Source: Candidatus Poribacteria bacterium
GTDB lineage: Bacteria; Poribacteria; WGA-4E; WGA-3G
Length of the DNA: 64,000 nucleotides
Reading direction: 5' to 3'
Assembly (NCBI GenBank): GCA_963665235.2
Contig: CAXXLX010000001.1
Coordinates: 1 to 64,000, forward strand
In this document: positions 13,167 to 33,502 of the stretch, one piece after another
How the letters are laid out: each line of letters opens with the position of its first letter
Position numbering within the stretch: position 1 is the stretch's first letter
Translations under genes and position numbers: made by a program
The notes under the pieces: generated by a model
Told to the model about the DNA's origin: nothing
The model's input: the letters and a program-made list of their open reading frames with translations, nothing else
The model's database searches: none

Positions 13167-15851
13167 CTACTGCTTTTCCAATAGAAGTTTCAGAACTTTT
13201 TCTCTACCGGCCTTGACCTCTGCCTCGTCAGCCTTGAGCTGCAAGAGCCCGATGACGAACTGTGTCAACGACCAGTCTACTTGGGTTACAGCTATCGGAG
13301 TACTGCCATCGTTATTTTGTGCGTTGATATCCGCGCCCTTTTCAATGAGCAGCTTCGCCACTTCAAGGTGTCCGAGGAAAGCTGCGGCATGTAAGGGTGT
13401 CGCGCCATCTTTATTTCGTGCGTTGACATCCGCGCCTCTTTCAATGAGTAATTTCGCAGCTTCCGTTTTGCCGGTGAGTGCTGCCCAGGCTAAAGGACTA
13501 ATTCCAGATTGCGGTTCGAGCGCGTTTATCTTTTTGCCCTCATCCAATGCCTTTTTGATAGCAGTTAGGTCGCCTGTGGCAGCTGCCTTCCATAAGTTTT
13601 GTGATTGCGTGCTGTTATTGGCATGTTCAGAGAGCAGTTTCACAACTTGGAGGCGTCCCGCTTCAACCTTTGCTTTGTCCACCTCGATTTGCAAAATACC
13701 GAGTATAAATTGTGTGGTCCCCCAGTCGAGCTGTGCAACATCCATCGGAGCACTGCCATCATTATTCCGAATGTTCGGATCGGCACCGTGTTTTAGAAGG
13801 ACTTTAACGGTTTCAGCACGGCCGAGGAACGCTGCGGCGAGTATTGCGGTCGTGCCATCTCTATTTTGTCCATTAACATCTGCGCCCTTTTTGAGCAGTA
13901 GCGTCACAATATCCGTGTGCCCCATCAGGGCAACCCCGGTCAAAAGCACGTCCCCAGATTCCGGGTGTCTTGCATTCACATCCATTCCATCAGCTAACGC
14001 CTTCTCAACAGCTTTGATGTTACCGCTGTATGCGGCTTCCCACGCTCGTTCCATACCCCGCCATTTTGACAACTCACCGCGCTCGACACCGAGCATTTCA
14101 GCGATTTTGTTTCTACCCGCTTCAACCTGTTTCTGTTCCAACTTAATGCCAAACATCCCTATCACAAATTTTGTCATCTCCCAGGGGGCCCACAATCCGC
14201 TTGCGGGGAGATTACCGTCACGGTTTTTGGCGTTGACATTCGCGCCGTTTTTGATGAGGAGCTCCGTTATCTCAGCGCGGCCTAAAAATACAGCAACATG
14301 CAACGGCGTTCCGCCATCCTCGTGCCTCACGTTGACATTCGCGCCGCGCTGTAGTAGCAACGCCGCCGCCTTTGGCTGTCCCATCAGGGTTGCCCATGTC
14401 AATGGAGACATCTGGGTCTCCGGTGAGAGTTCATTGATATCCGCCCCTTCGGCGAGGTAACGCTTGATCTCCTCAAGGTCGCCAGTCAGCGCGGCACCCC
14501 ACAAGTTGTCCTTCGGCAATTCGATAAACTGTCTCATCGCTTTACCATCGAACCCCTCAGGCCCGATTACGAATGGGCGGTGAGGTCTTTTTTTCCAAAT
14601 CGGCATTCCATCATCAATCTCGGTTAAGATTTCACCTTTGCGTGTACGGATGAAATTACGCGTCCGCTCCAGCATCCCCGCAAAATCGCGCGGTGTTTGT
14701 CTCCGCCGGTCCCGTCCTCCCCCAAAGAACTGTTGGGCGGGTATCATGTGCGGCCGGATCATCGCGTCAATCCTGTTCACTTCGGCCAGCAGTTGTGCCT
14801 CATCCCAATTGTTTTCAAGCAGGGCCATCATTGTTTTTCGGTACCGCTCGCGTCCTGACTCGAGTTGATAGAGCCTGTATGCGATGAATCCCTGTGTTTT
14901 AACCGATACTGGGGTCCGCGGGTCTCTACGAAAATCTATTTCACTATGTTTTACGAACAGCGAATCGGCACCCCACGGTAAAAAGTGAAACTTATCCGTT
15001 TCTGGGTTGAGATAGATAAAGAAGTTGTTGTTATTGCCGGAGTAGCCATCCCAGAAACCGAGCAGTCCTTCCACTGCCCAAAACGGATAGAAGCTATCTA
15101 AATCAACATGTTCACCGATAGCCTCCTCTGTCACCTGTTCATCTGCAAGAACGTCAATCAAGATTTTTATTTTTTCTCTACCGCGTGTATCGTTGCCTCT
15201 TTTGTGTTCAAAGCTGTTCTCCCACGCCTCGTAAAAATCAACGACGGTGCCTTCATAGAATGGCCCCTTGTTATTTCCGAAGGCGCGTTTTAGTATCGGT
15301 TTGCGCATACTCTCTACGTGGGAATAAATTCCCAAGTTTCTGCCGTTCACTGTCACCTTTGCATACGCACACCGGGGCGCAGTGGAGCCAACCGCATTGA
15401 ATAGGGCGTACCCCATAAATTGACTGACCTGACTCACATCCTGCTGGTTGTTATTGAACGTCAAGTTTGTCATCCCCTCAATTTCCGCGTCTTTGTCAAC
15501 ATGATTCAATCTGATTTTGAGGGAGGGACGCATGCTGTTTTGCGAACCGATAAATCCCTTTTTGCGGATTCCCACTTTCGGAAACACTACCCCATCAATA
15601 CTGACACTCGCTTCAACGTAGGTATACGGATGGTCAGGTGGCTTAAATTGTCGTGATGCGTTCAGAACTTCAGCAAAATGCCGAGTCTGATGCCGAATGG
15701 TATCCCAATCCTTTTGTGCAACGGTAATCTGTACATCTAAAACCCGGTCGGTTGGAAAAACATCCTCTAATGTAAGTTCCCGCGCATTGCTGCTGTGAAT
15801 GGCAGCCCCTAAACAGAGGAATGCTACCATAAACCCTATACACTGTTTCAT
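13167..15851 (-). CDS. CotH kinase-family domain fused to ankyrin repeats, signal peptide
   Basis: VGIRKKG, RPSLKIRL, WDGYSGNNNNFFIY, FHFLPWGAD; many GxTPLHxAAxxG ankyrin repeats; start MKQCIGF with GGAG RBS. Confidence 0.85.
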   Translation of the reverse strand: MKQCIGFMVAFLCLGAAIHSSNARELTLEDVFPTDRVLDVQITVAQKDWDTIRHQTRHFAEVLNASRQFKPPDHPYTYVEASVSIDGVVFPKVGIRKKGFIGSQNSMRPSLKIRLNHVDKDAEIEGMTNLTFNNNQQDVSQVSQFMGYALFNAVGSTAPRCAYAKVTVNGRNLGIYSHVESMRKPILKRAFGNNKGPFYEGTVVDFYEAWENSFEHKRGNDTRGREKIKILIDVLADEQVTEEAIGEHVDLDSFYPFWAVEGLLGFWDGYSGNNNNFFIYLNPETDKFHFLPWGADSLFVKHSEIDFRRDPRTPVSVKTQGFIAYRLYQLESGRERYRKTMMALLENNWDEAQLLAEVNRIDAMIRPHMIPAQQFFGGGRDRRRQTPRDFAGMLERTRNFIRTRKGEILTEIDDGMPIWKKRPHRPFVIGPEGFDGKAMRQFIELPKDNLWGAALTGDLEEIKRYLAEGADINELSPETQMSPLTWATLMGQPKAAALLLQRGANVNVRHEDGGTPLHVAVFLGRAEITELLIKNGANVNAKNRDGNLPASGLWAPWEMTKFVIGMFGIKLEQKQVEAGRNKIAEMLGVERGELSKWRGMERAWEAAYSGNIKAVEKALADGMDVNARHPESGDVLLTGVALMGHTDIVTLLLKKGADVNGQNRDGTTAILAAAFLGRAETVKVLLKHGADPNIRNNDGSAPMDVAQLDWGTTQFILGILQIEVDKAKVEAGRLQVVKLLSEHANNSTQSQNLWKAAATGDLTAIKKALDEGKKINALEPQSGISPLAWAALTGKTEAAKLLIERGADVNARNKDGATPLHAAAFLGHLEVAKLLIEKGADINAQNNDGSTPIAVTQVDWSLTQFVIGLLQLKADEAEVKAGREKVLKLLLEKQ

Positions 15852-16026
15852 TTTTACACTTCTCCTTAAATTGTCCATTGTAATGTTTGTGGCCGGTTTG
15901 AACGAAGCGAAACTCGACAAATCCACTACCATTTTAACACATTTTCAAAATTTCTGCTTGATAAATTTTCAAGACACGTGCTATAATAGCGTGACAATCA
16001 TAGTCGTAAGGAGAAAAAACATCCCA

Positions 16027-19000
16027 ATGTCAAAACCTTCACATATCCGAGACAACAATATGTACGGCACTGTTGCCGATTTTTTGCGAGATAAGCTCCA
16101 AGACGGTGCCTCCCTCTCTTTTGTCTCCGCCTACTTTACAATTAATGCCTTCAATGCACTTAGGGATTCACTGACTGGCATTGATAACCTGCGTTTTCTT
16201 TTTGGTCAACCCGATGTTGTCAACGGAATGGATCCCTCAAAAACAGAGAGCAAAGCGTTCCGTCTCACTGAGGAAGGGTTAGACCTGCGTACTGAACTTT
16301 CCCAAAGCGAAATTGCCAAAGCGTGTGCTGAGTGGATTGAACAAAAGGTGAAAATTCGCTCTGTCCATAAATCCAATTTTCTGCACGGTAAGATGTATTA
16401 TATCGAAAAGGATGGCGGTGAGGATGCAATCGTCGGCAGTTCCAACTTTACCGTGCGTGGCTTGGGGTTAAGCGAGAAAGCAAGCAACATCGAACTTAAC
16501 CTTGAAGTTGATAGCAAGAACGATTGCGCTGACCTTAAAAAGTGGTTTGATAGCCTCTGGGAATCGGATGAGGTGGTGGATGTCACTGATGAGGTCTTGC
16601 GAAATTTAGAGAATGCCTATTTTGACACAGACCCGGAATTCATCTACTACAAAACCCTCTATCACGTTTTTGAAGAATTCTTGGAGGGTGCAACTGATAC
16701 AGAGTTTGCCGAAGCAAATCCCAAATTTCAGGAAACAGAAATCTGGAAAAAACTCTACGCTTTTCAAAAGCACGGGGTTCAGGCGTGCATCCAGAAATTG
16801 AAGGAATACAACGGGTGTATTATCGCTGATAGCGTCGGATTAGGCAAAACTTTCGAGGCACTTGCAATTATCAAATACTTTGAATTACGAAACGCTAATG
16901 TGTTGGTGCTATGCCCCAAAAAGTTAGAGCAGAATTGGCTGCTTTATCCGACACACTATCGCAGGAAACGCAATCCACTGAAAGCAGATCGGTTCCGTTA
17001 CAACGTGCTAGCACACACGGATCTGAGTCGAGACAAGGGGGAATCCAACGGTATTGACTTGGCACAGCACGAATGGGATGGATACGACCTTATCGTCATT
17101 GATGAATCTCACAATTTCCGAAACCGTGGTGTCCGTTACGATAAATTGATGGAAGATGTTATCCAAAGCGGCGGCAAAACCCAAGTGCTTATGCTCTCTG
17201 CCACCCCGGTCAACAATCGCCTTACTGACCTTGCGAATCAGATCTGTTTAATCACTGAAGATAGAGACGACGCTTTTAGTAAGACTGGGATTCCAAGCAT
17301 TAGAGGGACGCTTAACGCAGCACAAAGTCGGTTTGATACGTGGACAGAAGAAGAAACCGAACAACCTTCTGGAGAACGCAAGCAGAAACCTGAAAACCTC
17401 GCTGAAAGCTTGAACGCAGACTTTTTTAACCTCTTGGATCGGCTCACTATTGCCCGCTCCCGAACGCATATTGTAAATTTCTATGAAAATACCGAGGAGG
17501 AGATCGGTCGGTTTCCGGAGCGTGTGCCCCCCAAATCCATCTTCCCTGACATTGACCGAGAGGGAAAATTTCCCCCCTATCAAACGATTAGCCACCAAAT
17601 CGAGGGTTACAAACTCGCGCGTTTTATTCCATCAAATTATATCCGTGAAGAATGCCGCCATCATTATGGCGAGGGACTCCTCCGGCAACGCGAGTCCAAC
17701 CTTATCGGTATGATGAAGGTTAACTTCCTCAAACGACTTGAAAGCAGTGTCTACTCCTTCGCAACTACCCTAGACCGCACTATTGAAAACATCAAAAAAC
17801 GTGAATCTGAAATTGAAGACTTTTTAAATGGGGAAGCTGAAAAAGGAGCTGGTTTCGATCCGTTGGCTGAAGCTGAAGAGGAATACGGTGATAATCAAGA
17901 TGAAGACCTGCAAGCTGGCATAGAAGCAGGAAAAGACCAGTTCTATCATTACGAACACCTCGACCTTGACGCTTGGCTTACTGATCTTCGAGACGATAGG
18001 GTGCAATTGGATAAAATTTACAGAATCGCGAACAACATTACACCCGAGCGCGATGCTAAATTGGAGCGACTCAAGCAGCTAATTGCCACCAAAGTGCAGA
18101 ACCCTACAAAAAACCGATGTGGAAAAGAGAATCGCAAAGTCCTTATCTTTACCGCCTTCGCCGATACCGCCAATTACCTTTACGATAATCTCCACGAATG
18201 GGCAATCGAGACGCTTGATATCCAATCCGCTGTCGTTACGGGCAGTGCAAACAGAACATCTTTGGGCAGAAACGATTTCAACGAGATTTTGACCAATTTC
18301 TCACCACTCTCTAAGTACCGGGAAGATATGGCAACGGATAGAGAAAATCGCGAGCCCGAAATCGAACTTCTGATTGCCACCGATTGTATCTCCGAGGGAC
18401 AAAACCTACAGGATTGCGATTATCTTGTCAATTACGACATCCACTGGAACCCTGTCCGTATTATTCAACGGTTTGGACGAATTGATAGGATTGGCAGCAA
18501 AAACGAGGAGATCCATCTCGTTAACTTCTGGCCCACACCTGAACTTGATGAATATATCAATCTCAAACCGCGCGTTGAGGCACGCATGGCACTCGTTAGT
18601 CTCACTGCTACCGGCGACGATGATCTGCTTTCTCTGAAGGACGAAGAAGAGAGCAGCATGAAACACGTCTGGACGCATCGCGATGAACAACTCCGCCGAA
18701 TGCAAACCGAAATCCTTGATTTTGAAGATATTGAGGAGCAGTTGAATCTCAATCAATTCACGCTTGACGATTTTCGGGCGCAACTCCTCAACTATCTACG
18801 TGCCAATGAAGCTGCACTGAGAAATGCTCCACTCGGATTATATGCTGTTACCGCACCCTTTACACATGATGGCATGCCTGTCAATATTAAGCCCGGGGTT
18901 ATCTTCTGTTTAAAGCAGGTTGTTGCCGAAACAGAGGGTACGGAGAAGCAGAAACTCAACCCAATTCAGCCTTACTATCTCGTCTATATCGATAATGCAG

Positions 19001-19308
19001 GCGAGGTTTCTATCGGATTCACAAATCCGAAACGGATTCTAGAACGTCTTAGCGCGCTCTGTATCGGAAAAACCGCCTCAAATCAGGCACTGTGTCACTG
19101 GTTTAACACAGAAACCGAAAATGGCGAGGATATGACGCTCTATGAGATGTTAATTGAGGCTGTGCTGAATTCAATTCGTGCGGAATACAATCGGAAAGTC
19201 AACGATCAGCTTGACGCAAGTGCTGATGCGCTGCTTCCATCTGCTGATAGTCAGATTACAGAGAAAACTGAATGGGAACTCGTTACCTGGCTCATAATTC
19301 AGCCTTAA
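16027..19308 (+). CDS. PLD-nuclease / SNF2-type helicase associated with type IIG-like R-M loci
   Basis: LHGKMY..D..GSSNFT (HKD), ADSVGLGKT, DESHNFR, SATP, SEGQNLQ, WNPVRIIQRFGRIDRIG; start moved to ATG 16027 (AGGAG upstream). Confidence 0.9.
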   Translation: MSKPSHIRDNNMYGTVADFLRDKLQDGASLSFVSAYFTINAFNALRDSLTGIDNLRFLFGQPDVVNGMDPSKTESKAFRLTEEGLDLRTELSQSEIAKACAEWIEQKVKIRSVHKSNFLHGKMYYIEKDGGEDAIVGSSNFTVRGLGLSEKASNIELNLEVDSKNDCADLKKWFDSLWESDEVVDVTDEVLRNLENAYFDTDPEFIYYKTLYHVFEEFLEGATDTEFAEANPKFQETEIWKKLYAFQKHGVQACIQKLKEYNGCIIADSVGLGKTFEALAIIKYFELRNANVLVLCPKKLEQNWLLYPTHYRRKRNPLKADRFRYNVLAHTDLSRDKGESNGIDLAQHEWDGYDLIVIDESHNFRNRGVRYDKLMEDVIQSGGKTQVLMLSATPVNNRLTDLANQICLITEDRDDAFSKTGIPSIRGTLNAAQSRFDTWTEEETEQPSGERKQKPENLAESLNADFFNLLDRLTIARSRTHIVNFYENTEEEIGRFPERVPPKSIFPDIDREGKFPPYQTISHQIEGYKLARFIPSNYIREECRHHYGEGLLRQRESNLIGMMKVNFLKRLESSVYSFATTLDRTIENIKKRESEIEDFLNGEAEKGAGFDPLAEAEEEYGDNQDEDLQAGIEAGKDQFYHYEHLDLDAWLTDLRDDRVQLDKIYRIANNITPERDAKLERLKQLIATKVQNPTKNRCGKENRKVLIFTAFADTANYLYDNLHEWAIETLDIQSAVVTGSANRTSLGRNDFNEILTNFSPLSKYREDMATDRENREPEIELLIATDCISEGQNLQDCDYLVNYDIHWNPVRIIQRFGRIDRIGSKNEEIHLVNFWPTPELDEYINLKPRVEARMALVSLTATGDDDLLSLKDEEESSMKHVWTHRDEQLRRMQTEILDFEDIEEQLNLNQFTLDDFRAQLLNYLRANEAALRNAPLGLYAVTAPFTHDGMPVNIKPGVIFCLKQVVAETEGTEKQKLNPIQPYYLVYIDNAGEVSIGFTNPKRILERLSALCIGKTASNQALCHWFNTETENGEDMTLYEMLIEAVLNSIRAEYNRKVNDQLDASADALLPSADSQITEKTEWELVTWLIIQP

Positions 19309-19334
19309 AGTGAATGGGAGCTCTCGATTTTTTC

Positions 19335-19363
19335 TTGACAATTAAAAGGTTACCCTTTACAAT
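19335..19363 (+). promoter_or_regulatory. sigma70-like promoter P1
   Basis: TTGACA-17-TACAAT. Confidence 0.6.
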
Positions 19364-19402
19364 AGGTATGGCATGAACTCATAGATTTTAGTGAAATTTA
19401 AT

Positions 19403-19431
19403 TTGCATTACTTAATATGATATGGTATAAT
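19403..19431 (+). promoter_or_regulatory. sigma70-like promoter P2, 9 nt upstream of the ancestral HD start / omegaRNA guide
   Basis: TTGCAT-17-TATAAT with extended -10 TG. Confidence 0.7.
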
Positions 19432-19461
19432 TAACCTATTATGACAGAACGACCGCATGAA

Positions 19462-19740
19462 GTCAATAACCCCCAGCTAAAGCATGGGGGAAACCTGTCC
19501 CTGATGCCCGCCAAGGCTATTACAGGGACGAGGGTAACTTGTTGACTACAGTAATATATCGCAGAGGCTGGACATGGCAGTCCAAAGTATGGTTATCTAA
19601 AAAGGTGGGTCGTCTGTGGTTGGACGATTTCACTGAAGGATGCTCCCCAAGTCTTAACCCACTACGCTTATGTGATCTGGATGGGGAAACCACATATACC
19701 CGCGTAAGCGGAGAACCCGAAAGGGTCCTTACCTGTTTTT
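19462..19740 (+). ncRNA. omegaRNA/HEARO-like structured RNA (3' end approximate)
   Basis: GTCAATAA (19462) pairs with TTGTTGAC (19539); GGATGCTCCCCAAGTC (19638) can pseudoknot with TGGGGA (19682); GNRA hairpins CCGC-GTAA-GCGG and ACCC-GAAA-GGGT. Confidence 0.72.
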
Positions 19741-19938
19741 TCAAAGAGACCGTGTCAGGTCAAGTAAACAGAAAGTGCGAGTTCTGTTGAACGAAGCAGC
19801 ACACTCGGAGAGGAACGCCTACGGGAAACCTGTGGCGAAAAAACAACCCGACTCCCCCTTTGGGGGAAATATAGAACGAATGGGAGCGGTGTTTCCTCCC
19901 CCGCATAAATGCTGGGGGTCTTCACACCGAATATTTTG
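19462..19938 (+). mobile_element. Non-autonomous IS200/IS605 (IscB-type) element without a protein ORF
   Basis: Begins GTCAATAACCCCCAGCTAAAGCATGGGGG; ends CCCCCGCATAAATGCTGGGGG..TATTTTG followed by ATGA; removal restores an in-frame HD start. Confidence 0.8.
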
Positions 19939-21300
19939 ATGAGAGACCCAATTCACGGCTTTATCAAACTTTCTAAAACAGAAAGAGATTTGATCGACAC
20001 AAAGGTATTTCAACGTCTTCGTCGGATTCGGCAATTGGCGATGACGTTTTTGGTGTATCCGGGTGCCGTGCATACGCGGTTTGACCACTCAATTGGTGTG
20101 ATGCACATCGCCGGTCGAATTTGCACAAGACTTCAGGAGTTAAATCCGTCGAGAATATCCGATGAAGACATGGATCGGGTTCGTATCGCTGCATTGCTTC
20201 ATGATGTTGGACACGGACCCTTTAGTCATGTTTCCGAGCATCTTTTGAAAAAGTACGCACCAGCAGATTCCGATACAGGACAGATTCTGGAAAAGATACA
20301 TGAGAAAATCACTGTAGATATTATTCGTACCGACTCAGAAATCAACGGAATTCTAAGTCCCGATGAACGGGATTTTGTAGTTGAAATCATTGAAGGAAAG
20401 CAAAATATCCGGGATTGGCATCGAGATGTTGTCTCTAGCGAGTTAGACGCGGATAAAATGGACTATCTCTTACGCGATTCCTATTTCGCCGGGGTCAAAT
20501 ACGGGATATACGATCTAGAGAAGATTATTGAATCATGTCTTATTGAGGTTGATAAAACAGAAACCTCCCTGGCAATTAACAGTAAAGGCATTTACGCCCT
20601 TGAACAACTCTTGCTTGCACGATACCACATGACACGGCAGGTTTATTGGCACCGAGTTAGCCTCATTTCTAACGAGATGATTATACGTGGAATAACTCTT
20701 GCAATTGAAGAGGGCAATACAAAAATGAAGGAACTTTATCAATACGATGAAAATGATAAAGAAAACTTCATTCAGAAGTATCTAAATTACCATGATGAAA
20801 ACGTAGTAGACATTTTGAGAAACTGTCCACAAGAAAAAGCACAAGCAATTTTCAGCAGACTTTACGGCAGAAAACTCTTCAAAACGGTTGCAAATCTCCG
20901 GCTCAAAGATGAAACAAATATTAGGGTTAAGCGGCGACTCCTCACAATGAAAGACGATCCGCAGCTAAGACTGGAATTGGAGACAGCAGTTGCCGATTAT
21001 CTTGGGATTGACGCAGATTACGTGATTATCAAACCTCTTCAGATTCGGAATCCTAACTATGGAAGCCGGAGTTACATCCTGAATCCGGAAGCAATCACAA
21101 TCGTTGACGAGTGGAGCTCCGAACCACGCGCTATGAGCGATTATACAAGCGAATTATTTTTCGCGAGACCTCTTGCCGACGACGAAACTTCTCTAGAGAT
21201 GGTGCAAGTTTATGTTCCCCCAGAGGGAGATAACCTGTCTCAAAAGCAGCGGCGATTGGCACTTGAGCCAGAAATCCAAAACATTTTGCGCTCTGCATGA
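19939..21300 (+). CDS. HD-domain phosphohydrolase (YwfO/SAMHD1/dNTPase-like); first 7 codons displaced to 19441-19461
   Basis: RDPIHG, FQRLRRIRQL, VYPGAVHTRFDHSIG, LLHDVGHGPFSH, DADKMDYLLRDS. Confidence 0.92.
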   Translation: MRDPIHGFIKLSKTERDLIDTKVFQRLRRIRQLAMTFLVYPGAVHTRFDHSIGVMHIAGRICTRLQELNPSRISDEDMDRVRIAALLHDVGHGPFSHVSEHLLKKYAPADSDTGQILEKIHEKITVDIIRTDSEINGILSPDERDFVVEIIEGKQNIRDWHRDVVSSELDADKMDYLLRDSYFAGVKYGIYDLEKIIESCLIEVDKTETSLAINSKGIYALEQLLLARYHMTRQVYWHRVSLISNEMIIRGITLAIEEGNTKMKELYQYDENDKENFIQKYLNYHDENVVDILRNCPQEKAQAIFSRLYGRKLFKTVANLRLKDETNIRVKRRLLTMKDDPQLRLELETAVADYLGIDADYVIIKPLQIRNPNYGSRSYILNPEAITIVDEWSSEPRAMSDYTSELFFARPLADDETSLEMVQVYVPPEGDNLSQKQRRLALEPEIQNILRSA

Positions 21301-21881
21301 AAGGTGATGAAATGTACACAATAGACGTTCTTTTACTTGTTGTTAAGAGCGAACCCGAAAACAGACTACGGGGGAGAACCCTCCTCCAAAAGAAGGTCTA
21401 CTTTCTATCGGTCCTCATGGGCGTTAATTTTGACTTCACCGCACATCGCTACGGGCCTTACAGCAGCCTGCTTGCAGGAAACTTAGATAGTTTAGTCGCC
21501 CATGGATTTCTTAATGAAGATATTGAATCCTTCGCGACAGCCTCAACCGATCGAAGTGTCTTTGGCGAAATGCGCCGACACACCTATTTTTTGACTGATG
21601 AGGCCAAAGAATTATGGAGAGATATTGAAAACGAACCAGAATTCCGAACATGGAAAAGGGAACTCGAGCGCATAAACGCTCACGAAATCGCTCACGATTT
21701 TAACAGACTCTCTATCGCTGCGAAAGTCCATTACATTGTCAGCCGGGGAGGAAACGGCACATATCAACAAATTCGACAGGTTGCCAAAGAGTATGAATGG
21801 GACGTGAGCGAAGACGACATCGAAAGTGTCCTCTCCTTTCTAACCGAACTCGGGCTGGTAACAACTGATGAATCTACGTGA
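21297..21881 (+). CDS. YwgA-like winged-helix protein, copy 1
   Basis: GRTLLQKKVYFL..F..HRYGPYS; ATGA overlap with the HD gene. Confidence 0.7.
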   Translation: MKGDEMYTIDVLLLVVKSEPENRLRGRTLLQKKVYFLSVLMGVNFDFTAHRYGPYSSLLAGNLDSLVAHGFLNEDIESFATASTDRSVFGEMRRHTYFLTDEAKELWRDIENEPEFRTWKRELERINAHEIAHDFNRLSIAAKVHYIVSRGGNGTYQQIRQVAKEYEWDVSEDDIESVLSFLTELGLVTTDEST

Positions 21882-21924
21882 TTCCTTCCCGTTCCGAACT
21901 GGAGTCGGACTGAAAGGAAATGAT

Positions 21925-22494
21925 ATGCACATTATTGATATTCTTATACTTGTTGTGAAGAGTGAAGGTGAGAACGGACTGCGAGGCAGAACGCTCCTCC
22001 AAAAGAAAATCTATTTCTTATCCGAGCTGATGGACGTTGATTTAGGGTTCTCGCCGCATTACTATGGGCCCTACAGTAGTTACGTTGCAAGCCACTTAGA
22101 TAGTCTGGTAAACTGTAGGTTGCTTAGAGAAGTGACAGAATCCTTTTCGACAGATTCGGAAGATCAGAATGTTTTTGGTGAAATGCGCCGGCATACCTAT
22201 TCTATTCCTGATAATGTTGAACCTGTCTGGCAAGACATTCAAAAGAAACCGCAGTTTGACGAATGGCAAGACGCTTTAAAACGGATAAACGAACACGAAA
22301 TCTCTAAAGACTTTAACAAACTGTCTATCGCTGCGAAAGGCCATTACATTGTCAGCTGGAAAGGAAACGGCACATATCAACAAGTTCGACAAGTTGCCAA
22401 AGAGTATGAGTGGGACGTGAGCGAAAACGACATCGAAAGCGTCTCCACCTTTCTAACCGAACTCGGGCTGGTAACAGCTGATGAATCTACGTGA
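21925..22494 (+). CDS. YwgA-like winged-helix protein, copy 2
   Basis: GRTLLQKKIYFL..F.PHYYGPYS; paralog of copy 1; ORF is open from 21868. Confidence 0.7.
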   Translation: MHIIDILILVVKSEGENGLRGRTLLQKKIYFLSELMDVDLGFSPHYYGPYSSYVASHLDSLVNCRLLREVTESFSTDSEDQNVFGEMRRHTYSIPDNVEPVWQDIQKKPQFDEWQDALKRINEHEISKDFNKLSIAAKGHYIVSWKGNGTYQQVRQVAKEYEWDVSENDIESVSTFLTELGLVTADEST

Positions 22495-22668
22495 TTCCTT
22501 CACGCTTCTATATGACCAACCGCTGCTTGCATGACCAGGACGGACGCAGCGCGTTGATAAAGTCCATAGATAATGGGTGCATAGCGGGAAACCTAGCGGG
22601 CGAGGAGACCTCGCCCCTACGAGGCTTAGGGCTAAATTTGCATCCGTCCTGACTCCATGAGACGCTAT

Positions 22669-25600
22669 ATGAATTTAGAAATAACAAAGAAAAACATTGA
22701 AAACACACTGAAGAACTTTGATAAGCAACCGCTCAGAGATGCCGCCACAAATCTTCTGAACACCCTCGGCTACTACAGCAATCTAGTCGGAAACGATGGA
22801 ATCGATGCCGAGCGGTTTGAACTTCTCTTTGAGGCCGCTCGTAAGACTGCCAACCCATCTCAAAAACTCCGCCTTGATGAGTGGCAATCCTTTTTTCAAA
22901 TTATGCAAGTAGCGGACAATCAAATTAAGCAGCAGCTAACCCCTGAGCAAGGCTCGCTGTTTGAGAGCACTCCAACAGACATAGATGATACGCTCAGAAC
23001 CTCCTATATGTTCGTCACGCTTCAACTGACTAAAGAGACCTACACACGCACACAACTCGCTGACATCACCCGTTTTATCAACAAAGAATTTGAAAAATCG
23101 GTCATGGTGATGTTCCGATACGGTGCTGTGCTCTCCCTCGCCATCATCAATCGCCGGCGCCATGAGATAGACCCATCAAAACAGGTGCTAAAAAAGGTGA
23201 CACTCATCAAGGACATTAACCTATCGTCTCCGAAACATGCCCATATTGTTATCCTCTCAGAACTTTATCTCCAACGGCTCATTGAACTTGAAGGCGTTAC
23301 CAACTTTGATACACTCCACAATGCATGGGCAAGTGTTCTCAACACGGAAGCACTCAATAAACGTTTCTATCGTGAGCTTGAAGCGTGGTATGAATGGGCA
23401 ATCAGCAGGAGTGCAAATTTCCTGATACAGAGAAAATCATAGAACCGGAGGAACATGTGATCCGTCTGATCACACGCCTCCTGTTTATCTGGTTTATGAA
23501 GGAAAAAGAATCTGGTTGCCTTCAGACGCTGTTCAACAAATCGCAAATCGCGAGACATATCTGAACAGAAGATGATTTTGAGACATCGGCGACTCCTACT
23601 ATCGCGCCGTCCTGCAAAACCTCTTCTTTCGCGACACTTAACACCAAAATAGACGAACGTAGGTTTACTAAGGTTAACAATTCTGATCACCGTAATCCCT
23701 CAGTGTATCGCTACAAAAAACAGATGAACGATTCTAACAAACTGCTATCCCTCTTCTCCAAAACCCTCATGGATTTCTGGAACACCTTAAGCAGGTGCCG
23801 TTTGTTCGGGGTTTGTTTGGATCTCGAGGAGGCAACCAAAAAAGGCTGGCGGTACACGCGTGGATTGCTTTTCACAGACTATGAAAAACATAGACAGAAA
23901 CTCCATCGTTCCAGCAACCGCCTCTTTTTTGATGAAAAAGTAGGCTTTATCGAAATACTTAAGCGCTATAAGTTTACCGTTGAGGAAAACACACCCGATT
24001 GAGCAGGAGGTTGCGTTAGACCCGGAACTGCTCGGACAAGGTATTTGAAAATCTACTCGCCGTACGTACAATCCCGAAACGCGCTGCCACTGCACGGAAA
24101 GCAGACCGGTTCCTACTATACGCCACGTCGATTGTTGATTACATGGTGGACGAAGCACTCATCGCTATTTTCTACGAGAAGGTTCAACCGACTGATGGAG
24201 ACAATGAAATACCTTAGAGGATGAACGACTCCGGGATGATCTGCTTGCCTACGACCGAAATGTTTGACGATGCACACGAATGGTTTGATGACCGAGAAAC
24301 GGACGCAATTGTGAAAACAATCTCTGAACTCAAGATATTGGACCCAGCCGTCGGTTCCGGCGCGTTCCCGATGGGCATACTCCACAAGTTGACGCTTGCA
24401 CTGCGGCGGCTTGATCCTGATAACAGCCGATGGGAAAAGTTACAGAAGGAGCTTGCGACACAACGCGCAGGCGAGGCTTTTGATACCTCCGACCAACAGG
24501 AACGGAAGGATGAACTCGCTGAAATCAGTGACACCTTTGAAAGTTACCGGGATTCAGACTTCGGACGTAAGTTATACCTAATCCAAAACAGCATCTTCGG
24601 GGTGGACATCCAACCGATTGCATGTCAAATCGCTAAACTCCGCTTTTTTATCTCGCTTGCAATTGAGCAGGAACCGGACAGAGACGCGAAGAACTTCGGT
24701 ATCAAACCGCTGCCGAACTTAGAGACGCGATTTATCGCTGCCAACACGCTGATAGGTCTTGGCCTGACACTAACAAGTGAAAAGGCACAGCGTTTAGAAC
24801 GTAAACTGCTTGTCAATCGCGAACGGCACTTCCACGCCACTACCCGCAAACGCAAACTTGCATGTAAGACTAAGGACAAAAAATTGCGAACAAAATTGGC
24901 AACCGAGCTAAAATATGTGGGTATGCCTGCCGATGATGCGGAAAAAATTGCCAAATGGGATATTTATGACCAAAACGATACCGCTGATTGGTTTGAGCCG
25001 AAACGGATGTTTGGCGTTGCAGATGGATTTGATGTCGTGATTGGCAATCCGCCGTATGCAAAAGGTGAACACCTAGATCTCACAATGCGTAAACAGCTGA
25101 AAGAGAGTTATGGCTGGGCGGGCGATTTATACGACTACTTTATCTTTGCCGGGTTTAATCTTACTGCCGAAAACAGGATTTTTGCATATATTGCCAATGA
25201 CAGTTACGTCGCACTGCCCACAAAACGTAGGATTCGTAACCTGTTTTTGGAACATAAGCTACTTCATTTGGTCAAGGCACCGGCCCATACATTTGAGGCC
25301 ACTATCTATACGGCTATTTTTATTTTGTTGAAAGCAGAGGTAGAAAATCAACATTCCTACCTGAGCGGAGAAATGAAATTTCCCGATTTTGAGTACATTG
25401 CAAACGGAGCAGTAGAATACGCAACGATTAACAAAATACCAGACCGTAAATTCCTATTAAGCGGAAAAAACCACTGGGTTTTGAGACTTTTTGCCCTTGA
25501 AAATGTGGAAAAATACTGCAACGTTTTGGACACGGGTATTCATTCTGGGAATGTCAGAACCAAAATCTTCTTCCAGGAAAATAACGGTAGAAGGCATAGA

Positions 25601-26212
25601 CTTTTACAAGGTAAGCAGATTCAAAGGTACACCATTCAATGGGATTCTCCGAAAGCGAAATACCTGTTTTGCGATATTGATTACGTACCTCTTCCTATCC
25701 CCGGAATTGGACGCGGCGGAAAACCGAGTAAACGAAACGAATACTGGCATTTTTGTGGGGATATTAAAAATCATCACCAACCCGAACGCCTACTGATGCG
25801 TCAAACTGACGATGATCTAATCGTCGCATATCATAGCGAGGCGGAGTCGGGACATTTCTACACAGATAACACACTCTATACGCTTCTTCCGACATCTGGG
25901 GACGTAAGTCTCAAGTTTCTTTTAGCGTTGTTTAATAGCCGATTGCTGAACTTTGTTTATCATTTTATTTCGCAGGAACAAGGGAAAACTCTGGCTGCGG
26001 TGAAAGTTAGCACTGTGAACAAATTGCCTGTGGTGATCCCATCGGAAATGGAGCAACGCCCCATTATTGATTTAGTAGATGAAATTCTTGAAGCGAAAGC
26101 TGGAAATCCAAATGCCGACACCACTAAGCAGGAAAAAGAGATTGACAAACGGGTCTATGAATTGTATAATTTAACGGGAGATGAGATTGCGATTGTGGAG
26201 GGAAAAGAATGA
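22669..26212 (+). pseudogene. Type IIG (Eco57I-like) restriction-modification enzyme, multiply frameshifted at ~23400-24220
   Basis: Fragments KVTLIKDI, LNKRFY, YKFTVEENTP, VALDPELLG, GSYYTP across frames; intact C-part with DPAVGSGAF, FDVVIGNPPY and TaqI-C-like TRD. Confidence 0.85.
26132..26203 (+). repeat. MTase 3'-end repeat copy 1 containing TTGACA-17-TATAAT (26142-26170)
   Basis: Near-identical to 28204-28273. Confidence 0.9.
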
Positions 26213-31409: not shown

Positions 31410-31493
31410 ATGCGTCCTCCATTCTGTTTTTTGTGCATTATACTACAAATTTCGTGATAGACCCCCAGCTAAAGCTTGGGGGCTTCCGCAAAG

Positions 31494-32705
31494 TTATGCG
31501 AAAGCATTTGTGGAATTCAGAAGCCGACTGGAGGCTTCAACGGTGAGGCCTACAATTTTGTTGAACAAAACAATAGGTCTTACAATACCTAACCCAAAGG
31601 AGGCTACCCCCTCCTTAAGAATATTAATAGCAGCGTTGTGGTCTCTATCAAGGTGCGTATAGCACTTTAGACAGGTCCACTCGCGCTCGGCTAACGTGAT
31701 ATTTCTATGGTGGTATCCGCAAACAGAACAACATTTCGTAGAGGGTGCCCATTTATCAATCTTCAAAACGCTTTTAATCCGTTTTTTGGATTGATGTTTT
31801 AGTTTCTGCATGAATTCTCCGAATGCCAAGTCAGAAACCTGTTTGCCCCAAAGTGCTTTCATGCCATTCAGGTTTAGGTCTTCAAAGAAGAGAATATCAA
31901 ACTGCCGACAAAGGTCAATAGCAAGTTTCCAATGGTGGTCTATTCTCTGATTCTTAGTTTTTTTGTGTATACGTGCAACCTGTTTTTTCGCACGCTCTCG
32001 GTTGTTAGAACCCTTAACCTTGCGAGACAAATCACGTTGGGCGAACGCGAGTTCTTTAGCATTCTGTTGATAGAACATAGGAGAACTATATCGTTTTGCG
32101 TCACTGCCAGTCAGGAAGTCTTTGATACCAAAATCAAACCCTTCAGCCTTACCTGTCTTGGGTTCAGGTATGACTTCGCTATAGTCTTCAGTGAGTGTGA
32201 TATAGATGGCACCGAGTGCGTCCCGTGTGACGTGAACTTCTTTGATGGCACCTTGTATCTCGCGATGCAAAGCGAAACGATACCAATGCCCGTTTAGGCG
32301 AATTCTATATGTAGGGTGGTTTCTACAATGCTTTTGTGGGTCAAGCAACTTCTCTATACGAACTTGCTCACCGCGAAACGTCATGCCTTTGTGCTTTTGA
32401 CATTTCTTGAATTGGGGGCGCCCGCGTTTGTGCGTCCGCATCTCTCTAAACGATTGGGCAAGCCGTTTAAGGACTTTTTGTAATGCCCAGGAATACGGAA
32501 TATTCCAATGGGCATACTTCTTCAGTTGCTTTAGTTTTGTCAGGTGCGCAGACATTTTGCCATAGGATAGACCTTTACCATAGCGACGGTAATATCGCAT
32601 AGACAGGGCGATGAAGTGATTTCGCACAACACCACAGATATTAAGCTCGTTATGTAGACGCTTTAAGGTCTTGTCGTGAAAAAGTTTGTGTTTTGTATTT
32701 CGCAC
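31494..32705 (-). CDS. tnpB: RNA-guided endonuclease TnpB
   Basis: GFDFG, FFEDL, CSVC..CLKC zinc finger, DRDHNAAINI. Confidence 0.93.
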   Translation of the reverse strand: MRNTKHKLFHDKTLKRLHNELNICGVVRNHFIALSMRYYRRYGKGLSYGKMSAHLTKLKQLKKYAHWNIPYSWALQKVLKRLAQSFREMRTHKRGRPQFKKCQKHKGMTFRGEQVRIEKLLDPQKHCRNHPTYRIRLNGHWYRFALHREIQGAIKEVHVTRDALGAIYITLTEDYSEVIPEPKTGKAEGFDFGIKDFLTGSDAKRYSSPMFYQQNAKELAFAQRDLSRKVKGSNNRERAKKQVARIHKKTKNQRIDHHWKLAIDLCRQFDILFFEDLNLNGMKALWGKQVSDLAFGEFMQKLKHQSKKRIKSVLKIDKWAPSTKCCSVCGYHHRNITLAEREWTCLKCYTHLDRDHNAAINILKEGVASFGLGIVRPIVLFNKIVGLTVEASSRLLNSTNAFA

Positions 32706-32717
32706 TATACACCTTTT

Positions 32718-33122
32718 TCATCTTCCTTCTACATACTGCTCTAAAACGGAGAGGGTTACACCCTCTGTAGAGGCTACAAAATAGGAACGGGTCCACAAGT
32801 TCGGAAGCCTTGATTTTAAGTGTGGGAACTCCGCGCGTAACACTTTTGCTGTCATTCCTTTTATTCTGCCGATTAGGATACCCACAGCTTCGGTGGGAGG
32901 AATGCTAATCAACAAATGCACGGGGTCTGCCAGGGTTTCCACTGCACGGACAACGTAACCGTATTCTTCTTGAGATTCTAATACAAGTTCTTTTAACCGT
33001 GTTTGGATTTCAGTAGACAAAACCGTACGTCTGTATTTCGTACACCAAATGATGTGATACTCACAGGCGTATGTAGAGGAGCGTGTCTTTTGATATACTA
33101 ACTCTGGTGTTTCTAATTTCAT
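32718..33122 (-). CDS. tnpA: IS200/IS605 Y1 transposase TnpA with altered HUH motif (DPVH)
   Basis: YHIIWCTKYRR, LWTRSYF, catalytic Y in EQYVE; first His of DHVH is Pro. Confidence 0.9.
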   Translation of the reverse strand: MKLETPELVYQKTRSSTYACEYHIIWCTKYRRTVLSTEIQTRLKELVLESQEEYGYVVRAVETLADPVHLLISIPPTEAVGILIGRIKGMTAKVLRAEFPHLKSRLPNLWTRSYFVASTEGVTLSVLEQYVEGR

Positions 33123-33274
33123 TTTAAAAAACCCTGTTGTGTTAGATTATAGATATATTATACCACATTTTTATTAGAAAGTCAAAGCATAGGTTCAACC
33201 CATGCGCCGCTACTACATCCCCCAGCTAAAGCACGGGGGTTTTGTAGCGGAAGACTTGATAATTTTTGAAGCTG

Positions 33275-33502
33275 CTATAAACATATCGCCCCGATGGGGC
33301 TAGGTTGGGGGGCGCGGCGGTTTTCTATAAACATACCGCCCCGATGGGGCTAGGTTATGTGTTTGTTGCGTCCTGCTATAAACATATCGCCCCGATGGGG
33401 CTAGGTTGGGGGGCGCGGCGGTTTTCTATAAACATACCGCCCCGATGGGGCTAGGTTGGGGGGCATGGCGGTTTTCTATAAACATATCGCCCCGATGGGG
33501 CT
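33275..33502. repeat. Five copies of CTATAAACAT(A)YCGCCCCGATGGGGCT with ~50-nt period
   Basis: Palindromic core GCCCC-GAT-GGGGC; spacers mostly repeated; related copies near 35355, 35405, 50988, 57024. Confidence 0.88.

Follow-up and report, generated by a model that had tools for sequence, protein, structure and literature searches.

The stretch of DNA analysed here (hereafter the window) comprises 64,000 nucleotides (nt) of a contig from a Candidatus Poribacteria bacterium. In this window, an HD-domain gene is interrupted between its codons 7 and 8 by an insert of 477 nt, located at 19462-19938 on the plus strand. The ends and boundaries of the insert show that it derives from an IsrB-encoding IS200/IS605 element as a non-autonomous, protein-less form (PATE type). 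This element, which is devoid of an open reading frame (ORF) for a nuclease, is shown to have kept the IsrB-type omegaRNA scaffold in full, over about 265 nt. We consider it quite probable that the locus as a whole should be read as an IsrB-family element of the PATE type, in which the host flank would serve as the guide of the omegaRNA, IsrB and TnpA would be supplied in trans, the HD protein would be translated from the ATG of the target-adjacent motif (TAM), and isrB has given way to a module resembling part of signal recognition particle (SRP) RNA. Under this reading, the core of the finding would be a clean natural example of an element exploiting a strong host promoter for its guide RNA. 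Protein-less IS200/IS605 derivatives and standalone omegaRNAs have already been described, and the core of the finding is not new in kind.

Ends, copies and parent family of the element

Deletion of 19462-19938 joins the original start and codons 1-7 (ATGACAGAACGACCGCATGAA, 19441-19461) to the HD frame, which reopens at 19939 with ATGAGAGACCCA, encoding MRDPIHG. The resulting start, MTERPHE-MRDPIHG, had been proposed in an earlier note on this DNA, and it was confirmed both in the sequence and by an orthologue with an empty site. Orthologues of the HD protein were found in 12 of the 40 relatives searched. The motif RDP[IV]HG was located in 10 of the 11 orthologue loci compared, and in all ten an in-frame ATG lies 7-8 codons upstream of it, giving the contiguous N-terminus without an insert that the note had expected. 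These N-termini (MKARPYV, MAKRQYS, MNTRTYE, MNKRPYE, MIERSHE, MTARSYE, MAKQTYRR, MEKQTYRR in two cases, and MKKPAHK) follow the pattern M-x-x-R-x-[YH]-x-[VIM]RDPIHG. In the nearest orthologue (77% identical, in genome G003), the empty site reads ...tggtataattttaatATGATAGAACGTTCCCATGAA ATGCGCGAC... (CATGAA|ATGCGC) behind the same promoter block as in the window. It encodes MIERSHE-MRDPIHGF, which places the insertion after codon 7. The HD gene severed from its first seven codons extends over 453 codons from the ATG of the TAM (19939-21300, plus strand; Pfam HD and HD_assoc_2), and its orthologues are 57-77% identical.

Both ends of the element carry subterminal hairpins of the IS200/IS605 type, as had been noticed earlier. 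One of them (CCCCCAGCTAAAGCATGGGGG, 19470-19490) lies in the omegaRNA-side end, which is the 'RE' of TnpA read on the bottom strand. The other (CCCCCGCATAAATGCTGGGGG, 19898-19918) lies in the TAM-side end (19882-19938, the 'LE' of TnpA), which also contains a Shine-Dalgarno (SD)-like GGGAG at 19882-19886, an outer stem, a 9-nt spacer and the last ~8 codons of isrB. A CCCCC-UUU-GGGGG hairpin at 19853-19866 is variable, and several relatives are without it. In the end alignment, ATGA at 19939-19942 is the TAM and at the same time provides the present first ATG of the HD frame. The predicted fold of the element has an energy of -173 kcal/mol (z = -3.1), and none of 100 shuffled sequences was as stable. 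No IsrB-like ORF is present inside the element, from which tblastn recovered only ~8 C-terminal codons; the insert is thus free of a nuclease ORF, as the earlier note had stated.

The source genome (5.3 Mb in 4 contigs) was searched for copies of the element, and BLAST gave 51 matches. The ORF-less copies number eight including that in the window, seven being full and one 5'-truncated. Two of the full copies (C1:337433-337901 and C1:680877-681345) are 96% identical to the window element from end to end, and four others (C1:504553-505002, 532866-533432, 1154421-1154878 and 1888074-1888563) are more distant; the truncated copy lies at 419334-419536. The first bases of all genome copies are GTCAATAA or GTAAAGAT, followed by a CUAAAG-looped hairpin, and the last bases are ...CCGAA(G/T)ATTTTG. 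The same two ends also delimit at least nine isrB-bearing copies with paired ends at unrelated loci. Since the first and last bases are identical among copies at other loci, the boundaries are not due to chance. The omegaRNA-side flanks of the copies are unrelated to one another, and on the other side ATGA directly follows 31 of the 35 ends of the end-family in this genome; the motif is thus fixed on one side only, without target duplication. Related genomes contain the family as well: 13 of them carry full-length ORF-less copies, 442-484 nt long. The further copies that the earlier note had called for were therefore found, seven ORF-less ones in this genome, with boundaries common to the full copies and with the ATGA-like flank. 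Its description of a minimal RNA-only element holds as far as the lack of a protein is concerned; the element is not a one-off, but one of a multi-copy ORF-less family that spans genera, and PATEs and standalone omegaRNAs had already been published.

Two cases depart from this picture. At C1:419236-419560, which contains the 5'-truncated copy (element bases ~256-477), at least 24 nt of the downstream flank (ATGAGATTCCGGGCAGAGGCAGTG...) are repeated directly upstream, a duplication that is unexpected under peel-and-paste transposition. In genomes G111, G121, G020 and G120, the same 18 nt (AATGGACCAGGTATCTTA-type) precede the scaffold; farther upstream, G120 differs, and three of these copies are without the usual TAM-side end. 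This group may be a copy with a fixed guide or one that was domesticated; alternatively, it may form a subfamily whose boundary has shifted.

The parent family is revealed by long relatives of 1.26-1.41 kb, which are 86-89% identical to the element over its bases 1-133 and 77-86% over bases 177-241. The single long copy examined encodes a protein of 359 residues with the PLMP motif and RuvC signatures. This protein matches Pfam RRXRR at 3.7e-30 and no HNH family. Its closest solved relative is DtIsrB (8DMB, E = 1.4e-25), the IscB entries covering only the first ~115 residues. The earlier note had taken IscB as the partner, which has to be corrected: the full-length relatives encode IsrB, an HNH-less protein of ~360-400 residues. 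The genome search for iscB or isrB that it had suggested returned isrB, with 23 RRXRR matches, 20 of which have open frames of 336-403 residues. Y1_Tnp matches number 13, of which 8 are near full length without stops and one lies in the window at 32727-33074. The subterminal hairpin of the element (CCCCCAGCTAAAGC.TGGGGG type) was found at four of the nine tnpA loci examined, with 95-100% identity over 21-22 nt, and hairpins of this kind accordingly flank Y1 tnpA genes. Since intact isrB and tnpA genes are both present in the genome, both trans-acting proteins are on hand. The Y1 transposase gene in the window is on the minus strand and belongs to an IS200-type element at ~31460-33290 flanked by hairpins CCCCCAGCTAAAGC(T/A)(T/C)GGGGG, matching the hairpin of the element at 19462. 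From this match, the IS200-type element is a likely source of TnpA in trans.

These features agree with what has been reported for IsrB systems. In the available text of Hirano et al. (2022, PMC9581776), IsrB is described as a nickase of ~350 residues with an omegaRNA of ~300 nt; NTGA is given as its TAM, with ATGA among the sequences cleaved by DtIsrB, the PLMP domain of which contacts the terminal SD hairpin of the omegaRNA. The element resembles such IsrB OMEGA elements, e.g. that of Desulfovirgula thermocuniculi, in its hairpin ends, in a scaffold that begins at the boundary of the element and is preceded by the guide in the 5' flank, in an NTGA-type TAM (here ATGA), in the PLMP/RuvC protein of its sister copies (359-403 residues, with DtIsrB as the closest solved relative) and in the isrB SD sequence within the terminal hairpin. 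Unlike them, the window copy is without isrB and carries a 125-nt module with an SRP-like helix in place of the ORF.

With PATEs and standalone omegaRNAs the element shares the lack of a protein, the retention of both ends and of the guide-RNA gene, and the need for TnpA and a nuclease in trans. The existence of omegaRNA-encoding PATEs is stated in the accessible part of Meers et al. (2023 preprint), where their omegaRNAs are used by TnpB; standalone omegaRNAs, reported in Hirano et al. (2022) with reference to Altae-Tran 2021, are used by IscB, whereas the window family is of the IsrB type. In contrast to PATEs, the window family has an added conserved RNA domain and is not a plain deletion, and genomes G067 and G081 each hold 20 or more copies of this family.

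Scaffold, promoter and start codons

The omegaRNA scaffold occupies 19462-19727, with a HEARO-like core at 19462-19693 followed by tandem terminal hairpins that include the remnant of the isrB SD hairpin. In the first stem, GTCAATAA (19462-19469) pairs with TTGTTGAC (19539-19546). This stem, noted earlier as GTCAA..TTGAC, covaries. The GNRA hairpins, also described earlier, lie at 19701-19725 (GCG-UAAG-CGG and CCC-GAAA-GGG). The sequences GGATGCTCCCCAAGTC at 19638-19653 and TGGGGA at 19682-19687, in the RNA the hairpin GGAUGCUCCCCAAGUC and UGGGGA, form a candidate pseudoknot (19638-19687), the loop motif of which aligns to the HEARO consensus. The hairpin stem shows compensatory changes (GAU/GUC, CCU/GGG and GGU/GCC). 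Its loop and the UGGGGA partner are nearly invariant across copies, and covariation therefore neither supports nor refutes the pseudoknot, which would be a reasonable reading.

Twenty full ORF-less copies, taken from 14 genomes, were aligned, and compensatory changes were found in 45 of the 85 predicted pairs over the whole element, mostly in the scaffold part. When ORF-less and isrB-bearing copies were aligned, the terminal CCGAAAGGAG hairpin (the isrB SD) and a few bases of the start-codon region were seen to be kept. The scaffold therefore extends to ~19727, i.e. over ~265 nt, as a multi-helix fold from the element boundary to the SD hairpin of the nuclease gene. Rfam gave no match at the gathering threshold over the whole window. 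At relaxed thresholds, HEARO (RF02033) was the only sensible match, at 19462-19693 over model positions 1-211 (22 bits, E = 0.025). Other element copies matched HEARO in 11 of 19 sources at 27-35 bits, each from element base 1. The HEARO match predicted by the earlier note thus exists, from base 1 and over the whole model, but far below the gathering score. At 22-35 bits versus 83, the element is not a member by the Rfam criterion. The two RNAs have in common the first stem, the CUAAAG-looped hairpin, the GGAUGCU...AGUC hairpin and the 3' GAUGGGGAA tail; the RF02033 model was built on IscB-associated RNAs.

According to the part of Meers et al. (2023 preprint) concerned with IscB-type RNAs, the scaffold begins at the transposon end, the guide is its 5' flank, and transcription of the omegaRNA must originate outside the element. 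Two promoter-like sequences were predicted upstream of the element by a consensus scan, namely P1 (TTGACA-17-TACAAT, 19335-19363, plus strand, 11 of 12 matches) and P2 (TTTGCA-18-TATAAT with a TG extension, 19402-19431, plus strand). P2 appears to be the native promoter of the HD gene, and its block aatttgcattactta...tggtataat is also found before the G003 orthologue. In all ten orthologues with a located start, a TATAAT-like box lies 6-23 nt before the ATG, and the HD gene would therefore normally be leaderless or nearly so. As far as can be judged from sequence, these comparisons show a TG-extended -10 promoter to be the normal source of its expression, giving a leaderless mRNA or one with a 3-nt leader. 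The -10 box of P2 ends at 19431. A start ~7 nt further on, at ~19438, is predicted, leaving 24 nt of host flank before the scaffold. This segment (19438-19461), which contains the original start codon and codons 1-7, is in the position of a guide. The promoter and the ~21-24-nt guide suggested in the earlier note are thus upheld in so far as P2 is predicted, is conserved in G003 and leaves 24 nt of flank; the start site, which is deduced from the -10 box, and the use of the flank as a guide are to be taken as probable features. The read-through frame from the original start (19441-19545) has 34 codons, MTERPHE and 27 element-encoded residues, and stops at TGA 19543-19545, where the note had placed the stop. 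A minus-strand promoter-like site (TTGACT-17-CATAAT with TG, 19466-19438) is formed across the junction of element and host, pointing away from the HD gene.

The ATG of the TAM opens an ORF of at least 80 codons at 21 of the 35 ends, versus 20% of all 39,677 ATGA sites. Pfam domains were found in 14 of the 19 such ORFs scanned. For BatA, URO-D, the aconitase family and ArgJ, the first positions of the profile fall within 15 residues of the ATG; MurJ and a biotin-lipoyl protein are also among the genes opened by it. In several omegaRNA-side flanks, an SD motif lies 6-9 nt from the junction, e.g. AAGGAG-N9 and AAAGGAGA-N6. The SD motif before the junction, together with the ORF at the ATG of the TAM, shows that the element separates the ribosome-binding site from the start codon, in genes that are probably indispensable. 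Insertions of IsrB elements, or of derivatives without the ORF, were observed on intact housekeeping-type start codons at C1:3543562, 607425, 1198240 and 784538 and at C2:342217 and 569783, the genes at these sites being those for MurJ, URO-D, the aconitase family, BatA, ArgJ and the biotin-lipoyl protein.

In the window copy, the outer stem of the TAM-side end is formed by CGGUGU (19887-19892) and ACACCG (19924-19929). This stem pairs 6/6 in all 27 parsed ends (8 further rows were unparsed), in five sequence variants: CGGTGT/ACACCG, CGGATT/AATCCG, CGGGCT/AGCCCG, CGGGCA/TGCCCG and CGGTGT/GCACCG. Directly 5' of the stem lies a GGAG-, AAGG-, GAGG- or GGAT-type motif, and the distance from the stem to the ATG is mostly 9 nt. 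This arrangement suggests a split ribosome-binding site joined by the outer stem, and the HD protein minus 7 residues is probably still made from the ATG at 19939. We found no publication describing IsrB insertion at start codons. Docking on start codons, including those of housekeeping genes, with a conserved SD-like motif and stem appears to be new, and it suggests how a transposon could come to lie behind the ribosome-binding site of a gene, directly on the start codon, and yet leave the gene active. Both this docking and the module described below may be of interest for the origins of OMEGA and CRISPR systems.

Combining these observations, we propose the following mechanism. P2 would transcribe ~24 nt of host flank fused to the scaffold, yielding a ready-made omegaRNA, the guide of which would match the uninterrupted HD allele beside its ATGA TAM. 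IsrB could be supplied in trans by the ~20 intact isrB copies, and TnpA by the IS200 copies with the same hairpins. The two proteins would then mobilize the element and introduce nicks at vacated sites, in the manner reported for IscB and TnpB elements. The conserved GGAG-type motif would be brought by the covarying stem to 9 nt from the ATG of the TAM, so that translation of the HD protein would continue.

Contigs assembled from sequencing runs were inspected for traces of RNA from the locus. In one study, three RNA-library runs gave contigs that match parts of 19461-19942, though not without mismatches, and these libraries may contain DNA. The mismatches indicate that the contigs come from sister copies or relatives. 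The RNA-library contigs do not cover 19300-19435 and cover almost none of the HD gene. Contigs are stacked most deeply over 19708-19775, but such depth is no basis for ranking the parts. A fourth run (X6, of DNA or unknown kind) bridges the junction at 19462 without differences and shows no empty site. The contig data count neither for nor against transcription of the locus.

Several points weigh against the proposed reading. No transcript of this very locus was seen in the contigs of the three RNA-library runs, and the element reaches 22 bits with RF02033, the gathering score of which is 83. Ribosomes should enter at the 5'-terminal AUG and travel through the guide and the first 84 nt of the scaffold, which could hinder folding of the omegaRNA. 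IsrB is presented as a nickase in the available text of Hirano et al. (2022, PMC9581776), and homing by a nick is a proposal. Four genomes (G011, G014, G020 and G023) carry one module copy each with no RRXRR match at E <= 1e-10, and copies can thus persist without IsrB. As for the start codon, the covarying TAM-side stem could equally be a DNA structure read by TnpA, and the GGAG motif is also part of the C-terminal codons of isrB in long copies.

Some of these points would fit another account, in which the element is mobilized by TnpA only, the omegaRNA part is a passenger that no IsrB uses, and the 'guide' position has no consequence. The module copies in genomes devoid of RRXRR matches, the passage of ribosomes from a leaderless AUG across the guide and the first stem, and the lack of locus-specific RNA among the RNA-library contigs would all be expected on this account. 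On the other hand, the scaffold helices are kept by compensatory change across copies that are only ~70% identical, which indicates selection on the RNA fold. The terminal SD hairpin, the one that is contacted by the PLMP domain in DtIsrB according to the available text of Hirano et al. (2022), is still present in those ORF-less copies that were compared. Moreover, isrB genes are numerous in all five module-rich genomes tested, with 9-28 RRXRR matches each. We therefore consider mobility by TnpA with a useless omegaRNA to be unlikely. Removal of the insert at the RNA level, by a group I or II intron or in an IStron-like manner, would restore the MTERPHE-MRDPIHG frame exactly as deletion of 19462-19938 does, and intron-fused IS605-family elements are on record. 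No group I or II intron family was found in Rfam even at E <= 10, however, the ends are IS200/IS605 hairpins common to tnpA copies, and in the four runs no contig links the two flanks directly, although contigs are a weak test; such removal is very improbable. We also tried and rejected the idea that the region belongs natively to the HD gene, as a structured leader or riboswitch. The position between promoter and ORF and the stable fold would suit it, but the same element stands at unrelated loci, and all ten located orthologue starts are without the insert, which leaves this idea practically no room.

The module in place of isrB

The IsrB-type reading of the element leaves the segment between the scaffold and the TAM-side end to be explained. 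A conserved module of 125 nt with covarying structure (model R1), which the earlier note had not recognised as a separate part, replaces the isrB ORF at 19727-19851 on the plus strand, corresponding to element bases ~266-390. It is kept in every ORF-less copy and has no counterpart in the isrB-bearing copies of the same genome. An origin within the isrB ORF was sought by tblastn and blastn, which showed no similarity beyond the last ~8 codons. In 19 copies, 96.6% of the cells are paired in the module structure versus 85.7% in shuffles (0 of 500 reach the observed value), and only 38-52% when the partners are slid; compensatory changes were found in 11 of the 23 pairs. With R1, the module was detected in 38 of the 99 genomes sampled from the same family and in none of 51 genomes of other families of the phylum, with 20 matches in G081 and at least 23 in G067. 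RRXRR is present in 70 of the 110 genomes of the family sample. An IsrB-like frame within ~1.5 kb of the module was seen at none of the 36 loci compared in other genomes.

Within the module, the helix at 19746-19806 resembles domain IV of SRP RNA. It was compared with helix 8 of the SRP RNA of the same genome (C1:3538403-3538668, 177.8 bits), which reads AACC-CCGU-CAGG-UC...GA-AGCA-GCGG-CA. In the window element, the 5' strand consists of a GACC loop, GUGU, CAGG and UC, and the 3' strand of GA, AGCA, GCAC and A(C); the consensus strands over the copies are (G/C/U)ACC-G(U/G)GU-CAGG-UC and GA-AGCA-GC(A/C)C-A. Common to both RNAs are the symmetric CAGG/AGCA loop, which is invariant or nearly so across module copies, the closing U-G (19 of 19), the two UC/GA pairs above it and the asymmetric, ACC-type 5' loop opposite 1-2 bases. 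The parts of domain IV that are kept in the module are those contacted by the M domain of Ffh. In contrast to SRP RNA, the module has no GNRA tetraloop, its place being taken by a variable covarying hairpin of ~31 nt (19762-19792), and it has neither the Alu domain nor the rest of SRP RNA. The sequence GTCAGGTC followed by GAAGCAGC within 80 nt occurs eight times in the 5.3-Mb genome, namely in the SRP RNA gene and in seven ORF-less copies.

The Rfam SRP models gave no match on the element, and the 91-nt SRP-like stretch alone gave only the chance-level families SNORD26 and RT-2 (E 7-9). Applied to the whole genome, R1 found the eight element copies and one match at E = 0.96, and the score that it gave to the SRP locus, 10.1 bits (E = 0.86), did not exceed that of a chance match in the same search. 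The resemblance to SRP RNA therefore rests on the direct comparison and not on a model score. Judged in this way, the module is a partial mimic of SRP domain IV, not an SRP RNA. We infer that it is a selected RNA domain, the core of which copies the Ffh-binding helix of SRP RNA. No publication was found that links bacterial transposable elements or omegaRNAs to SRP RNA or Ffh, although supplementary omegaRNA catalogues could hold cases. The SRP-like module, which is confined to ORF-less copies, appears to be new.

A second ORF-less element bounded by hairpins, ~700 nt in length, was observed at four loci in three other genomes (G093 with two loci, G018 and G103; L075:1280-2060, L076, L077 and L078). 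Its large conserved RNA contains the same SRP-like helix (R1 E = 1e-11 to 1e-15), and it has an internal promoter-like site TTGAC(T/A)...TTTAATAT; five copies are present in G103. No Rfam family matches this element, and no nuclease gene was seen nearby. A possible association with TnpB was probed at two loci that have in common with it the right-end hairpin alone; the genes there are ordinary ones, for PfkB, an ABC ATPase and an oxidoreductase.

What the helix does can be viewed in two ways. It may be a generic motif, or a fossil of captured SRP RNA, that does not bind Ffh and acts only in the folding or stability of the element RNA. The silence of the Rfam SRP models, the 10.1 bits (E = 0.86) that R1 gives to the genuine helix 8, the missing GNRA tetraloop and the fact that the resemblance was noticed after the fact all fit this view. 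It is more difficult to reconcile with the preservation of both strands of the symmetric loop, the U-G and the ACC-type 5' loop while the flanking helices covary, with the restriction of the motif pair in the 5.3-Mb genome to the SRP RNA gene and ORF-less copies, and with the recurrence of the helix in a second, unrelated ORF-less element type. On balance we lean slightly towards a generic or fossil helix. Alternatively, an RNA-only OMEGA lineage might have swapped isrB for a mimic of the Ffh-binding helix, by which Ffh would be recruited, either protecting the guide RNA that acts in trans or bringing it to ribosomes where IsrB emerges. This second possibility is speculative and rather improbable. 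The analogy is with the Alu and B1 short interspersed elements of eukaryotes, which derive from SRP RNA, Alu from the other end of 7SL RNA; there, too, an SRP-like RNA belongs to a non-autonomous element relying on proteins that autonomous copies encode. If Ffh is indeed recruited, the module would be a bacterial counterpart of the parasitism of Alu on L1, and the same helix in the ~700-nt element would mean that the trick was adopted more than once. In any case, an RNA domain with an SRP core offers a concrete hypothesis of how guide RNAs without a nuclease gene of their own survive or find their nuclease in trans.

Neighbourhood of the HD gene

The earlier note had also regarded the insert as a structured leader for a defence operon. 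Of this suggestion, only the defence-like families of the genes were seen. The HD protein has a weak match to the dGTPase model (1.7e-12). The genes on both sides of the locus (window 13167-19308 and 21297-26212) are reminiscent of a defence island: the upstream protein of 1169 residues matches the PADLOC HKD+Snf2 model C3a139 at 5.5e-125, and a type IIG-like methyltransferase is encoded downstream of the HD gene. From these similarities, a defence context of the locus seems plausible. The same neighbourhood also encodes a CotH-kinase/ankyrin protein of 921 residues on the minus strand and two small proteins with weak similarity to the C-terminal part of DarG.

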